A stretch of 64,000 bases of DNA from an uncultured Desulfobacterales bacterium (lineage in GTDB: Bacteria > Desulfobacterota > Desulfobacteria > Desulfobacterales > JAHEIW01): the NCBI GenBank assembly GCA_947259495.1, contig CAMYLV010000005.1:55401-119400 (forward strand). The letters run 5' to 3'. The notes under the pieces were generated by a model. The model did not search any database and was not told where the DNA came from. It saw only the letters and a program-made list of their open reading frames with translations. Both the position numbers and the translations under genes were made by a program. Positions 12,389 through 60,685 of the stretch are shown here, in pieces (the stretch's first letter is position 1; every line of letters begins with the position of its first letter).

Positions 12389-13561
12389 CTACTTTTTCTT
12401 TTTTGTAAAATCGGCGATTTCGCTGACAGCTTCGATGGTGGTCTTTATGTGGTCTTCGGTATTAAACGGGCCGATGCCGATGCGAACCGAACCGCCGATC
12501 TGATCGGTGCCCAGTTGCTCGTGTACCAGGGGGGCGCAGTGAAGTCCGGTGCGGCAGGCAATATCATATTCCCCATCCAAAAAGGTGCCTGTGTCGAGCG
12601 CCTCCATTCCGTCTATATTAAAACTGAGAACACTGATATGATCGGTCAGGTCGTCCTGACAATAAAGTGTCACCCCATCCAGCGCCTTGAGGCCATCCCG
12701 TAACATTCGCGCCAGCTTCATTTCATGGGCATGAATCTGATCGATTCCTTTTTGTGCGATCCACTTCAAGCCGGCATGCAACCCGGCGATGCCCATGACA
12801 TTGCCGGTACCGAATTCAAGCCGGTATGGATATTCGTCCAGGTGCATGCGATGAGCAGAGCGAACCCCCGTCCCGCCGGCCCGGGTGTGCCGAATGTCAA
12901 CTCCCTCTCTTACGTAAAGGCCGCCGATACCGGTGGGTCCCAACAGGGATTTGTGGCCGGTAAAAGCGACAATATCAATGTGCATTTTGTCGATGTCAAT
13001 CGGCACCTTGCCGGCGGACTGTGAGGCATCAATGGCAAACGGGACGCCGTGCTTGCGGCAGATGCGGCCGATGGCCTCTATGGGCTGCACCGTGCCGATC
13101 ACATTGGAGGTATGGTTGATGATGATCAGACGGGTGTTGGTTTTGATTTTTTGTTTGATATCGTCCGGGTCGACAAAGCCCTTCGTGTCAAAGGAAACAT
13201 AGTCGACCTCTACGCCGTGTAACTTGCTCTGATGATAGAGCGGCCGGAGCACGGAATTGTGTTCGAGCGTAGTTGAAATGGCATGATCGCCCGGTTTTAA
13301 AAGCCCGAAAATGATCAGATTAAGGGCATCGGTGGAGTTATACCCAAAGCACAGCCGGTTGGGGTCCTTGCCCCCGAAAAAATCGGCAAGCATCTTGCGG
13401 GTGTTGTCCACCAAAGCGCCGGTTTCCATGCACATGTCATATCCGGAGCGCCCCGGGTTGACCCCAAAGTCGCGAAAAAACGAGTCCATGAAGGAATACA
13501 CCGCTTCCGGTTTGGGGTAAGAAGTGGCTCCATTGTCAAGATAAATTAATTTTGTCATCAC
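12389..13561 (-). CDS. Class-V aminotransferase, cysteine desulfurase/selenocysteine lyase-like
   Basis: IYLDNGATSYPKP, LEHNSV, DASQSAG, TGHKSLLGPTGIG (PLP lysine), RTGLHCAP (catalytic Cys). Confidence 0.92.
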   Translation of the reverse strand: MMTKLIYLDNGATSYPKPEAVYSFMDSFFRDFGVNPGRSGYDMCMETGALVDNTRKMLADFFGGKDPNRLCFGYNSTDALNLIIFGLLKPGDHAISTTLEHNSVLRPLYHQSKLHGVEVDYVSFDTKGFVDPDDIKQKIKTNTRLIIINHTSNVIGTVQPIEAIGRICRKHGVPFAIDASQSAGKVPIDIDKMHIDIVAFTGHKSLLGPTGIGGLYVREGVDIRHTRAGGTGVRSAHRMHLDEYPYRLEFGTGNVMGIAGLHAGLKWIAQKGIDQIHAHEMKLARMLRDGLKALDGVTLYCQDDLTDHISVLSFNIDGMEALDTGTFLDGEYDIACRTGLHCAPLVHEQLGTDQIGGSVRIGIGPFNTEDHIKTTIEAVSEIADFTKKKK

Positions 13562-13579
13562 AGGGTATCCTTGCTCTGT

Positions 13580-13810
13580 TTATACCGCTTTTCATAATAA
13601 TGTTCCGAGTCACCGACCACCCGCAGAGCGGGTGGCTTGGATTTTTCCGCCACAGGCGGAAAAACAAACGGGCACGGCAGTGTCCTATTCGGTGCGGGTG
13701 AAACCGGGTGCAAAGAACCCGGTTAAAACACCCAATTACGGAATTGGGGCATACGTGGTTGTAGAAAAAAACGTTGGCATAACGGAACGCTTTTTTGACA
13801 ACCACTATAA
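13580..13810 (-). repeat. Dispersed ~104-bp hairpin repeat, copy A, interrupted by a 126-bp insertion
   Basis: Matches the other seven copies on both sides of 13609-13734; contains the exact 13-mer GGTTGTCAAAAAA on the minus strand. Confidence 0.9.
13609..13734 (+). mobile_element. Putative non-autonomous IS200/IS605-type (PATE-like) mini-element
   Basis: Absent from the sister copies of the host repeat, no target duplication. Hairpins CCACCCGC-AGA-GCGGGTGG, TTTTTCCGC-CACAG-GCGGAAAAA, GGGCAC-GGCA-GTGTCC and AACCGGGT-GCAAAGA-ACCCGGTT. Begins GTCA...GCTTG. Confidence 0.55.
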
Positions 13811-13959
13811 AACGGCCTGATTTATTCCGGCCCTCTGGCCGAAAGCTTTGCCCGCGACAGCCCGCCATCATCACTGTTGGGGCATACATAAGACAATTGA
13901 CCTATATTTACAATAGAAGCGAACTCAAAAATTGCGATATGGTGCTGGGCAGGATCGGG

Positions 13960-14454
13960 CTAAAGAGAAAAACTTCTTTTCCCTTTGTAGCCGGAATAGG
14001 GCAGCGTAACATATAAACCGTCTCCCATGTAGACCCCTAATCCCATGAAAATACCTTCCGGGTTGTAGATTTCGACTACATCTCCGTGAGTTCGGCCGGG
14101 ATTTACATATTCCGGATAGCAGGTTGACAACGGATTTAAATACATGCGGACTTTATGGCGCACCCGCCCGCGGGTCGAATCAGATTCGATCTCTTTGACC
14201 TCGTTTGCCCAATAATAAAATTTAGCATACAGAGCGCAGTGCGGCCATTTTTGGGCACAGGCATCGAAAAATTCCTGCAGCTTGACCGTCTGCCCGTCCA
14301 GAGTGGACAGATACGGTTTCTCGGGTAATTCTTTCAGACGCGCCACAATATCATCGATGCAGGCCTCCGGTGGACGTTCAGGTGCCGGTGCAAGCGTATG
14401 GCAGCCGGCAACCAGGACCCCCAGGAGAATACAAACGAGGCGCCGTGCTATCAT
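13960..14454 (-). CDS. Hypothetical lipoprotein
   Basis: MIARRLVCILLGVLVAGC lipobox at ATG 14454. Confidence 0.7.
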   Translation of the reverse strand: MIARRLVCILLGVLVAGCHTLAPAPERPPEACIDDIVARLKELPEKPYLSTLDGQTVKLQEFFDACAQKWPHCALYAKFYYWANEVKEIESDSTRGRVRHKVRMYLNPLSTCYPEYVNPGRTHGDVVEIYNPEGIFMGLGVYMGDGLYVTLPYSGYKGKRSFSL

Positions 14455-14695
14455 TCTATCCGTCCTTGCACAGGTTCTCGCTCGTGGTACAACAGGCGAC
14501 AAGATGATAAGATTTCACCTCCCTATCCGTTGACCTGGTTTTTTTGGGGCGGCCACCCGAGGTGACCGCCGACGGCTTTATCGATCGACATCTCGGCGGT
14601 GGCCGATCTTAACGACCCGGATGCTGCGTTCATCACCCTGGATGGAATAGACGATGCGATATCTACCCTGTGCCGGATGCGATATCGCGCTAACG

Positions 14696-16442: not shown

Positions 16443-16546
16443 TTATAGGGGTTGTCAAAAAACGTTGCAGTATTCAAACGTTTTTTTCTACAACCCCTTA
16501 TGCCGCACTTCCGTATTCCGGAACATTATTATGGAAAGCAGTATAA
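16443..16546 (+). repeat. Dispersed ~104-bp hairpin repeat, copy B
   Basis: TTATAGGGGTTGTCAAAAAACGTT...AACGTTTTTTTCTACAACCCCTTATGCCGCACTTCCGTATTCCGGAACATTATTATGGAAAGCAGTATAA. Confidence 0.92.
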
Positions 16547-16675
16547 TCGAGGCACTGAAAAGGTTATCACCCTGCACAACAGGCACTGCGTAATCAAACG
16601 GATCAAGATTGCATGTTAGGGAAATCCGTAATAATCGGAGTGCCCTTTGTAACGGAAGCGTACTCAGATTTGCAT

Positions 16676-33514: not shown

Positions 33515-33619
33515 TTATAGGGGTTGTCAAAAAATCGTTCCGGCATTCAAACATTTTTATTTACAATCCCTTGTGCCGCACTTCCGTCTTCCGGAACATT
33601 ATTATGGAAAACGGTATAA
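33515..33619 (+). repeat. Dispersed ~104-bp hairpin repeat, copy C
   Basis: TTATAGGGGTTGTCAAAAAATCGTTCCGG...GCCGCACTTCCGTCTTCCGGAACATTATTATGGAAAACGGTATAA. Confidence 0.9.
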
Positions 33620-33860
33620 ATTGCGGATCAAGGAACAGTTTATCCTGTGTGCCGTAAGCGAATCTTTGGCGGGTTGCGAGAAGTTTGGGTATGGTGTGTG
33701 AAAGCCGGATTTTTTAGAAGCGAAGTGCCTTGCTTGACAGGTATCAGGCAGCTCACTACCTTTATTTTTATACATAAAGATTAATGAGAAGGTATAAATA
33801 TTCTTAATCGCAGTAAGTTTAAACTATTGCAAAAACAGCAGAACAAACCAATCAGGTATC

Positions 33861-35361: not shown

Positions 35362-35497
35362 TTAGTTAATATCCGTCGGTTGAATTAAATAAACACTAGC
35401 CAAGCTCATAAACTAATCCATGATAAATTCAAATCAACCGGGAAAGGGTCAAATGCTCAAAGGAAATTTGTTAGGGTTCGGGTATATTTGACCAGAT

Positions 35498-35569
35498 ATG
35501 GAATTGCGGCACAAGTGGTTGTAGGAAAAAACGCTCGAATAACGGATCGTTTTTTGACAACCACTATAA
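35498..35569 (-). repeat. Dispersed repeat copy D (partial; 3' third missing)
   Basis: ATGGAATTGCGGCACAAGTGGTTGTAGGAAAAAACG...CGTTTTTTGACAACCACTATAA. Confidence 0.85.
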
Positions 35570-52008: not shown

Positions 52009-53181
52009 TCATAGATTTCTTTTGGGCAGCATCAGAATAAACGGAATCGCGGTCAGCCCCATTATGGCGCTCACAAAATAGGTGGCGCGCAGGCCGATCA
52101 AGTCCCCGATTAAACCTACCAATACGACGATTGCCGAACGCGCCATGAACGATGCCATCATGAAAAATCCATTGGCGGCAGACGGGCTGCTTTTGGCGTG
52201 TTCCTGCACAAGTGCCAGCATAACCGGGGTTGTCGACAGCAAGGTAAATCCGATAACCAGTAAGGTCAAGAAACGAACCCACCCGCCAACCCAGGCGAAT
52301 ATGAGTAAACTTAAAGGAGCGCCCAGCAAAGAAATCAGCAAAATTCGGCGGCGGCCAAAACGATCGCTGAGGAACCCGGCCGCAAACACACCGCCGACAC
52401 CGCTGATTTCAAAAAGCGTGAGGGCGGCGCCGGCCAGCCAAAGATCACCAGTTTCCAATTTAATGAAGGTTGGCAAAAAAGCCGTTATGGACGCATGCAT
52501 AAATCCCCGCGCCAGAAGTATTGCCGTCAAAGGCATGAGAATGAATCGCAATTCGCGCCAGGTTTGCAGAACGGATAATTTGCGGTTGTGATTTACGGTT
52601 ATCGGTACCTCCCGAAAGTTGAAATACAACCAGGCCGAAGCCGCCAGACCGAAGATCATAATGGGATAGAAGCCTTCGAGCCCATAAAGAGAAACCATCC
52701 CCACCGCAACCAGGGGTCCGACCGCTCTGGCAAGCTCACCTCCGGTCATGTAGAAACTCATTCCACGGCCTTTTTTTGAGCCGGCCAAACGCGATATCAT
52801 CACCGGGGAAGGGACGTGAAAAAGCGAAACGCTGATGCCCGTTATAAATAATAATATTAATAAAATACCATAGCTGGGGGCCGTCCCGATCAGGCTCATC
52901 GGAACAGCAGTCAGGGCAGGCGCAAGAATGATAAAGTAGCGAACGCTGATTCTGTCAGCCAAAATGCCGATATATGGATTCATGAGTGCGGGAATCTGCA
53001 TGACCGAAGAAAGAAACCCGGCCTGTGTCAAAGACATGGACAGTTTTTCGATCAGAAGGGGTAGAAGCGGCGACAGAAAACTGGAATAGATATCGTGAAT
53101 AAAATGGCAAAGCGAAAGCACAACGATACGGCCGGTTTTAAAGTCGACCGATTCGCGATCATGTGATGGCTTGCGGGTCAT
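52009..53181 (-). CDS. MFS transporter (Fsr-like)
   Basis: HFIHDIYSSFLSPLLP, GILADR, GFLSDRFGRR. Start at ATG 53181; the longer ORF start lies inside a repeat. Confidence 0.92.
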   Translation of the reverse strand: MTRKPSHDRESVDFKTGRIVVLSLCHFIHDIYSSFLSPLLPLLIEKLSMSLTQAGFLSSVMQIPALMNPYIGILADRISVRYFIILAPALTAVPMSLIGTAPSYGILLILLFITGISVSLFHVPSPVMISRLAGSKKGRGMSFYMTGGELARAVGPLVAVGMVSLYGLEGFYPIMIFGLAASAWLYFNFREVPITVNHNRKLSVLQTWRELRFILMPLTAILLARGFMHASITAFLPTFIKLETGDLWLAGAALTLFEISGVGGVFAAGFLSDRFGRRRILLISLLGAPLSLLIFAWVGGWVRFLTLLVIGFTLLSTTPVMLALVQEHAKSSPSAANGFFMMASFMARSAIVVLVGLIGDLIGLRATYFVSAIMGLTAIPFILMLPKRNL

Positions 53182-53185
53182 GAAG

Positions 53186-53288
53186 TTACACCGCTTGTCA
53201 TAATAATGTTCCAAAAAAAGGATGGCGGCATAAGTGTTGTAGCAAAAAAACGTCCCGCAACCGGAACGTTTTTTTGACAACCACTATA
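53186..53288 (-). repeat. Dispersed ~104-bp hairpin repeat, copy E
   Basis: TTACACCGCTTGTCATAATAATGTTCC...GCGGCATAAGTGTTGTAGCAAAAAAACG...CGTTTTTTTGACAACCACTATA; ends 4 bp before the MFS ATG. Confidence 0.88.
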
Positions 53289-55626: not shown

Positions 55627-55688
55627 GTATGTCTCCGGCACCGCCAACGTATTCGTTTCATTGACGAAAATATTCAGCCGTGTTCCTG

Positions 55689-55795
55689 TTATACCGTTTT
55701 CCATAATAATGTTCCGGAATAAGAAAGTGTGGCCTAAGCGGTTGTAGAAAAAAGCGTTTGAATACCGGAACGTTTTTTTTTGACAACCCCTATAA
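55689..55795 (-). repeat. Dispersed ~104-bp hairpin repeat, copy F
   Basis: TTATACCGTTTTCCATAATAATGTTCCGGAATA...GGTTGTAGAAAAAAGCGTTTGAATACCGGAACGTTTTTTTTTGACAACCCCTATAA. Confidence 0.92.
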
Positions 55796-55909
55796 AGCAC
55801 AAAGTCTTCTGAAAAGCAATTTCGGGTGCTGCGGTTGACAAGACTTGATTTATTTTATCAGGGTCTTAATTTCTGAGCAGTCCGGGTGTTCATCGCCAAC
55901 AAAATAAAA

Positions 55910-56013
55910 TTATACCGCTTTTCATATTAATACTCAAAATGGTGGAATTGCGGCATAAGGGGTTGTAGAAAAAACGTTTTGATATCGTAGCGTTTTTTTG
56001 ACAACCACTACAA
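55910..56013 (-). repeat. Dispersed ~104-bp hairpin repeat, copy G
   Basis: TTATACCGCTTTTCATATTAAT...GCGGCATAAGGGGTTGTAGAAAAAACGTT...CGTTTTTTTGACAACCACTACAA. Confidence 0.88.
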
Positions 56014-60454: not shown

Positions 60455-60557
60455 TGTAGTGGTTGTCAAAAAAACGTTGCGGTATTCAAACGGTTTTTTC
60501 TACAACCACGTATGCCGCACTTCCGTATTTTGGAACGTTATTATGGAAAGCGGTGAA
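60455..60557 (+). repeat. Dispersed ~104-bp hairpin repeat, copy H
   Basis: TGTAGTGGTTGTCAAAAAAACGTTGCGGTATTCAAACGGTTTTTTCTACAACCACGTATGCCGCACTTCCGTATTTTGGAACGTTATTATGGAAAGCGGTGAAA; 4 bp after the stop. Confidence 0.92.
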
Positions 60558-60685
60558 AAAGGCAATCGCCTTACGCCGACAGTCTTCAACGCCTCTAAAT
60601 TTTACAAATCCATTGGTTCTGCAAATGCTTGAATGGGGATGCAGGCGGGTCGAATGCAACCCATGCCATGAATGGGGTTGCCGGT

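Follow-up and report, generated by a model that had tools for sequence, protein, structure and literature searches.

Just upstream of a cysteine-desulfurase-like gene in the genome of an uncultured Desulfobacterales bacterium, one copy of a dispersed repeat is interrupted by 126 nt of hairpin-rich DNA, which raises the question of what this insert is and by what route it reached its position. The locus lies in the window, by which we mean the whole 64,000-nt stretch of DNA that was analyzed, and a sequence-only reading had taken the insert for a non-autonomous mini-element of the IS200/IS605 type with an IscB/TnpB flavor. When the copies of the insert, their flanks and their counterparts in related genomes are considered together, the insert very probably descends from an insertion sequence of the IS200 group as a non-autonomous derivative (PATE/MITE).

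Boundaries and gene context of the insert

The insert occupies positions 13609..13734 of the window and reads GTCACCGA-CCACCCGC-AGA-GCGGGTGG-CTTG at its left end and AACCGGGT-GCAAAGA-ACCCGGTT-AAAACACCCA at its right, with two further hairpins between these blocks. When the 126 nt are excised, the register of a ~110-nt host repeat is regained and a target-site duplication is absent. This register was checked against a profile built from 220 uninterrupted copies of the host repeat, to which the joined flanks of 18 filled copies were aligned: each profile column was filled once, none was doubled, and the surplus was exactly 126 nt, so that the discrete, duplication-free hairpin insert described from the sequence is upheld. 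The boundary can slide by 1 base, an A standing before the right junction and another in the flank. The left arm of the interrupted host repeat spans 13578..13608 (nhmmer match to profile positions 5-36) and the right arm 13735..13815 (profile positions 26-116), the latter bearing a 20-nt inverted repeat (GTGGTTGTAGAAAAAAACGTT / AACG(C)TTTTTTGACAACCAC). GC-rich subterminal hairpins are found at both ends of the insert, H1 at 8-9 nt from one terminus and H4 at 10-13 nt from the other, and the two are alike only in their apical GC-TYT-GC part. The termini themselves, GTCACCGA and TGGGTGTT, do not form terminal inverted repeats, and the element has no coding capacity.

The neighboring gene (12389..13561, minus strand) encodes a class-V aminotransferase or cysteine-desulfurase-like protein (Pfam Aminotran_5, E = 1.4e-91), and the element lies 47 nt upstream of its start codon; an upstream ORF at 13960-14502 has the same orientation. 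Consensus scans of the locus detected no sigma-70-type promoter and only weak terminator-like hairpins, H1 with its T-rich tract scoring as terminator-like on the plus strand. In relatives, the same locus is a 161-nt spacer containing neither the host repeat nor the insert.

Copy number and distribution

The sequence-only reading had called for a genome-wide search for copies, and the insert proved not to be single-copy: the genome to which the window belongs (G000; 4.44 Mb, 69 contigs, 97% complete) holds 31 near-full and ~14 partial copies, ~45 in total, at 79-90% identity, the closest pairs showing 4-5 differences per 126 positions. Copies of subfamily A start with GTCACCGA, and ~22 of them in this genome interrupt the host repeat, all in one orientation and at a single position (TTCCGA^ATTACGG); those of subfamily B start with GTCAACGA and lie at unrelated sites. 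There are also two short forms, in which H2-H3 are gone and the terminal hairpins H1 and H4 are kept, and two longer forms whose H4 loop hosts a related element. Self-nesting is seen outside the window at the subfamily-B copies C12:43735-43836 and C13:21595-21696 (plus ~160 nt downstream), where the sequence interrupting the H4 loop is a more distant member with the same architecture (GTCAATCA-hairpin-CTTGAATTT...).

Each of the 21 other genomes of the genus carries the element, as do two of three from the sister genus. Across the order Desulfobacterales it was found in 45 of 401 sampled genomes, representing 21 of 174 genera, and an exact-pattern scan of public genomes returned matches only in Desulfobacterales, Desulfobacteraceae and 'delta proteobacterium' MAGs. 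Partial matches in genomes of other genera (G163, G313, G303, G387, G405, G218 and G292) were considered as possible transposase-bearing copies and ruled out, as they are diverged mini-elements.

Homology to an IS200 element and search for a transposase

The ancestry of the element is revealed by a genome from another family of the order (G036), which contains ~16 identical-scoring matches to element positions 1-36, mostly near contig ends. At these matches, GTCACCGACCACCGGCAAAGCCGGTGGCATGGAATT... forms the terminus of a multi-copy element of ~630 nt (locus L102:1501-2129) that encodes a 143-aa TnpA, an IS200/IS605-family transposase according to NCBIfam NF033573 (128 bits, cut-off 55). The tnpA-distal end of this IS can be aligned to element positions 1-75 at ~80% identity over 70-75 nt (nhmmer E = 1e-7), and the region of homology takes in the hairpins downstream of tnpA (H3 plus T-run, and H2) together with the terminal hairpin. 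The latter, H1, carries a compensatory change, being CCACCGGC/GCCGGTGG in the G036 IS versus CCACCCGC/GCGGGTGG in the element, and the matching end is found ~50 nt after the tnpA stop codon at at least nine G036 loci. The minus strand of the window is therefore equivalent to the strand that was tnpA-sense in the ancestor, and we assign the whole element (subfamily A, 13609..13734) to that strand. Its module homologous to the tnpA-3'-proximal end ('RE') of IS200 extends over 13609..13685 on the minus strand and consists of the terminal spacer GTCACCGA, H1 (13617-13635), H2 (13642-13664) and H3 (13670-13685). This module also fits the RE consensus of other IS200 copies in the order, whose end consensus is CAAGCC-hairpin-TxxxTGAC(T), and the spacing from hairpin to terminus is the same in these IS200s and in the mini-element (~10 nt at one end, 8-9 nt at the other). 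In G036 itself, 25 TnpA matches occur in a single 4.5-Mb genome, many at contig ends, and the autonomous relative looks to be undergoing active expansion there.

For the H4/P5 end, no homologue was detected in ~40 IS200 loci. No autonomous element with both exact hairpins was found, nor was any tnpA found within 517 kb around 80 element copies; the IS200 of G056, a genome that also contains the mini-element, was considered as a partner and rejected, its ends not being an exact match. IS200-type TnpA was detected neither in the window's own genome nor in 19 of the 21 congeneric genomes, and G010 contains only a fragment of one. As the cognate transposase gene is undetectable, the copies are probably fossil; those in the window's genome look orphaned and no longer very recent.

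In the suggested search for tnpA, tnpB or iscB loci sharing the ends of the insert, one end (~75 nt) proved to be shared with the tnpA-bearing IS200 of G036, but no locus with both ends and no TnpB was found. The IscB/TnpB/omega-RNA flavor of the sequence-only reading, and with it the idea of a guide-RNA remnant, is not sustained. The related autonomous element encodes tnpA only, the window's genome gives no match to the TnpB domain Cas12f1-like_TNB (PF07282), and an Rfam scan of positions 13300-14100 (E up to 10) returned chance matches only, with no transposon-linked RNA family among them. An IS91 model likewise had no match in this genome, but it had none in any control genome either, and the single reverse-transcriptase gene present is unrelated to the element.

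The same genome does encode other enzymes that might be suspected of mobilizing the insert, namely three Y1_Tnp matches in proteins of 279-338 aa and four IS110-family genes. IS110-family elements are known to target repeats and to produce no duplications. The one long Y1 protein tested (from contig C14) is RAYT-like, with a DnaA-C-like tail and 72.8 bits on the REP-associated tyrosine transposase model, but this falls below the model's cut-off of 80. We regard it as very unlikely that either a RAYT-like Y1 enzyme of ~320 aa acting in a REPIN-like manner, or an IS110-family recombinase with a bridge-RNA-like guide, has moved the element: neither the element nor its hairpins were found in the flanks of this genome's Y1 genes, and its IS110 loci have no end similarity to the element. 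Furthermore, the distribution of the long Y1 family (80 of 121 genomes in the order) does not track that of the element, and the family is missing from G036 and G056, both of which carry the element. Elsewhere in the genome, a 338-aa RAYT-like Y1 gene (C3:48852-49868, outside the window) lies between inverted copies of an unrelated 27-36-nt sequence (GGGACGTCCATGAAATTATAACTTTC), and the same pair brackets a 2-kb segment encoding a 302-aa membrane/NERD-like ORF (C5:36520-38628); these bracketed segments may constitute a separate Y1-associated repeat system.

Insertion polymorphism and target site

Evidence for mobility comes from the copies outside the host repeat, for which empty-site models were built and searched across the genus. 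Uninterrupted orthologous sites were recovered in relatives for four or five of these copies, among them CAGGA^ATTAAG for C2:41526 (in the loop of a terminator hairpin beside a tRNA gene), CTGA^ATCGC for C10:6597, CTGA^AT for C10:128292 (at a stop codon) and TTCGA^.. for C47:5161. When the filled and empty sites are compared at these four loci, no target duplication is apparent. The insertion at C6:67228 is common to one other species and missing from another.

Alignment of 45 insertions outside the host repeat, drawn from many species, reveals G at position -2 in 43 and A at position -1 in 36, while the three bases that follow ...CCC are A, A and T in 40-42 of the 45, then C or T. These counts define the target as GA^AT(Y), which reads TRAT^TC on the opposite strand. 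A target motif shared among the flanks of other copies had been anticipated from the sequence, and its bases recur in 36-43 of these insertions. At the window copy the left target half (GA) is at 13607..13608 and the right half (AT) at 13735..13736, as judged from the flank statistics and the empty sites in relatives. The conserved bases flank the insertion point on both sides; classical IS200/IS605 targets lie on one side of the insertion point only. Subterminal hairpins in place of terminal inverted repeats, the lack of a target-site duplication, a short target and one end homologous to a tnpA-bearing IS200 together support the assignment to the non-autonomous IS200/IS605 elements, or PATEs.

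The TGA stop codon of an upstream gene often supplies the left half of the target (...CTGA^AT), for example at C10:128292 and at several other insertions, so that insertions frequently begin exactly after a stop codon. Replication-strand bias, judged from local GC skew, was not significant (n = 33, with a weak skew signal). A preference for hairpin loops as targets was likewise not significant, 24 of 41 sites being in loops compared with 45% of control sites (p = 0.058), and folding energy did not differ.

Nested copies in the host repeat

A profile search located 220 uninterrupted and ~25 interrupted copies of the host repeat (~245) in the genome. Besides the interrupted copy at 13578-13815, the window contains copies at 16445-16547, 33518-33620, 35492-35569, 53175-53288, 55678-55792, 55899-56012 and 60457-60559. 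The repeat contains a 20-nt inverted repeat (GTGGTTGTAGAAAAAAACGTT / AACGTTTTTTTGACAACCAC) and a TTCCG..CGGAA mini-palindrome. A role as a fixed promoter was ruled out, since the repeat has no orientation bias relative to genes (111 vs 82). It is missing at the examined orthologous loci of other species, and is therefore itself mobile or fast-turning-over.

The ~22 nested copies could be the product of a single event, in which the element entered the host repeat once and the composite of host and insert was then multiplied as a unit, or was passed between host copies by gene conversion, so that the nested copies would not be independent. That they share one insertion point and one orientation is what such a history predicts, and the absence of a transposase gene is in keeping with it, as is the slightly greater similarity of filled flanks to one another than of random sets (0.149 vs 0.171, p = 0.057). 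Moreover, no host-empty versus host-filled orthologous pair was found at seven candidate loci, where relatives are without both repeats, so that no stepwise history is visible. When the host copies are compared by their flanks, however, the nearest neighbor of a filled copy is an empty one in 16 of 18 cases, and the distances between inserts are uncorrelated with those between flanks (Mantel r = 0.03, p = 0.38). Filled copies also belong to at least two host subfamilies, and the element inserts alone elsewhere at the same 4-nt motif. The inserts diverge less (0.08-0.105) than the flanks (0.15), a difference that may reflect structural constraint.

The junction sequence also bears on this point, as GAAT is found there in 12 of 18 filled copies versus 8 of 220 empty ones; most host copies that offer the motif at this position are therefore occupied, although a single founder could also yield an excess of GAAT. 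Occupancy of generic GAATYA sites is ~0.2% (n=4768), and the preference for the host repeat as a landing site is ~100-fold. Spread of a composite from one founder thus appears unlikely to us, and independent, site-specific insertion fits the ~22 nested copies best. The sequence-only reading had identified as a point against itself the possibility that other repeat copies contain the segment as a native part: the segment is indeed contained in ~22 host copies, but the flank analyses, and the subfamily-A copies found outside the host repeat in other species, argue against its being native to them.

At positions 13731-13748 of the window, the last bases of the element and the adjoining flank form a 7-bp palindrome across the junction (CCCAATT-ACGG-AATTGGG), as occurs in filled copies of the GGGG host variant. 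This variant makes up 12 of 18 filled copies versus 59 of 220 empty ones, and the junction palindrome may contribute to its enrichment.

A conserved fold that pairs both termini

Six helices are formed by the 126 nt, whichever strand is folded. In the predicted fold, a closing helix P1 (13611..13694, with 13611-13616 paired to 13689-13694) encloses H1-H3 as a four-way junction, and an outer helix P5 (13696..13733, with 13696-13700 paired to 13729-13733) encloses H4 (13703-13723), the other subterminal hairpin. P1 and P5 are one base apart on a continuous strand, TCGGTG-C-GGGTG, and this 12-mer pairs with the 5'-terminal CACCGA and the 3'-terminal CACCC, whereby the termini are brought together. 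The full-length IS of G036 has nothing equivalent to P1.

When 118 distinct copies are compared, standard pairing is kept at almost every pair of the six helices in 90-100% of them, with a few terminal or gap-affected pairs lower; P1 is paired in 86-98%. H1 is nearly invariant; in each of the other five helices, compensatory changes of both partners are seen. P1 has A-T at pair 5-84 in 72 copies and C-G there in 38; in H2, pair 40-50 is C-G in 88 and G-C in 23, and pair 38-52 is also doubly changed; in H3, pair 62-77 is A-T in 61 and G-C in 48, and pair 63-76 is G-C in 82 and A-T in 24; in P5, pair 90-123 is G-C in 84 and T-A in 23; and in H4, pair 99-111 is G-C in 98 and C-G in 5. Selection may have favored a compact fold of the single strand, one in which both ends are presented. 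Candidate pairings of internal DNA guides beside the hairpins with the cleavage sites were invariant or ambiguous.

Strong covariation in six helices might also be expected of a structured RNA gene or a family of cis-regulatory RNAs (sRNA, terminator or attenuator) that was repeated by chance and whose fold was conserved for its function as RNA. G-T wobbles exceed A-C mismatches on the plus strand (153 vs 103; sign test over pairs, 24 vs 8), H1 and the T-rich tract that follows it resemble a terminator on the same strand, and the window copy is situated just upstream of a gene. The element nevertheless matches no Rfam family, and its copies lie in both orientations to neighboring genes and in many contexts. 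Both strands also fold equally well as DNA (z = -6.0 for the plus and -6.2 for the minus strand relative to shuffles; as RNA, z = -7.0 and -5.3), and transposon signatures are seen in the element's presence/absence polymorphism, its constant target motif and its homology to an IS200 end. An RNA family thus seems quite unlikely as the primary identity of these sequences. The wobble excess may be a mild hint that the plus strand folds; the 4-5-nt target motif would fit the minus strand better.

For the preferred reading, a non-autonomous IS200 derivative, we suggest the following route. The element would move by the single-strand 'peel and paste' route with a Y1 (HUH) TnpA supplied in trans, the enzyme binding both subterminal hairpins on one DNA strand, cutting the termini and religating them into a single-stranded target motif. 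H2 and H3 would descend from the region downstream of tnpA, and the remaining helices may have been kept to fold the single strand so that the termini sit side by side, with P1 and P5 pairing the 12-mer with both ends. In the window's genome, subfamily A would have landed repeatedly in one site of the ~110-nt host repeat.

A more speculative extension, to which we attach only a small probability, is that the fold acts as a built-in single-strand DNA splint in which the 12-mer holds both cleavage sites side by side, making the element an unusually efficient substrate that remotely related Y1 enzymes could mobilize, for instance the ~320-aa RAYT-like proteins of genomes without IS200 TnpA; alternatively, the fold may be kept because copies act as RNA or terminator modules. 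A splint, if real, would explain the persistence of the element across 21 or more genera.

Comparison with known systems

The family described here is an abundant and long-lived set of mini-elements descended from IS200 and carried by uncultured sulfate reducers of marine and sediment settings; its ends are precise, its target motif is defined and its fold is supported by covariation. Its copies can be masked during annotation instead of being called riboswitch-like or small-RNA candidates. With two different terminal hairpins and helices that pair the termini, they also provide a natural set of substrates for end recognition by single-strand transposases, and those in the host repeat are an example of one repeat family serving as the preferred landing pad for another.

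Against the IS200 of G036, the element shares a homologous end that includes the hairpins downstream of tnpA, hairpin-to-terminus distances of 8-9 nt and ~10 nt and a terminal ...TGAC(T), whereas it differs in having no tnpA, in an H4/P5 end without a detectable homologue and in P1, which the full-length IS does not possess. REP/REPIN sequences and their RAYT (TnpA-REP) enzymes offer a second parallel, being likewise short, abundant, GC-rich hairpin repeats with a presumed Y1-type enzymology, and RAYT-like genes are present in the genome. However, the present element is a four-way junction with a nested hairpin and not an inverted REP pair forming one long hairpin; it is not clustered around a RAYT gene, and its phyletic pattern is uncoupled from that of RAYT-like genes.

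Insertion sequences that home into repeats are also known, for example IS110/IS1111-family or IS1397-type elements targeting REP sequences. Like these, the element has inserted recurrently at one position and in one orientation of another dispersed repeat, but the invader here is a gene-less IS200 derivative, and the common requirement is a 4-6-nt motif.

The closest parallel is with PATEs (palindrome-associated transposable elements), an established class of gene-less IS200/IS605 derivatives that have been described in haloarchaea, cyanobacteria and Geobacillus stearothermophilus (Meers et al., bioRxiv 10.1101/2023.03.14.532601). Shared with them are the lack of coding capacity, subterminal hairpins in place of terminal inverted repeats, the absence of target-site duplications, a short specific target, ends related to a tnpA-bearing element (here, one end) and copies that outnumber the autonomous elements. 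In contrast, the Desulfobacterales element derives from the tnpA-only IS200 group with no link to omega-RNA or TnpB, it is locked as a whole into six conserved helices through which an internal 12-mer pairs with both termini, and its cognate transposase is missing from the genus (not found in 19 of the 21 other genomes, with a fragment in G010). A terminus-pairing fold supported by covariation, a strong preference for one site in another repeat and persistence without a cognate transposase are unusual traits, though not categorically new ones. The Desulfobacterales family does not reveal a new mechanism; it adds to the known PATE class a well-resolved case derived from a tnpA-only IS200.
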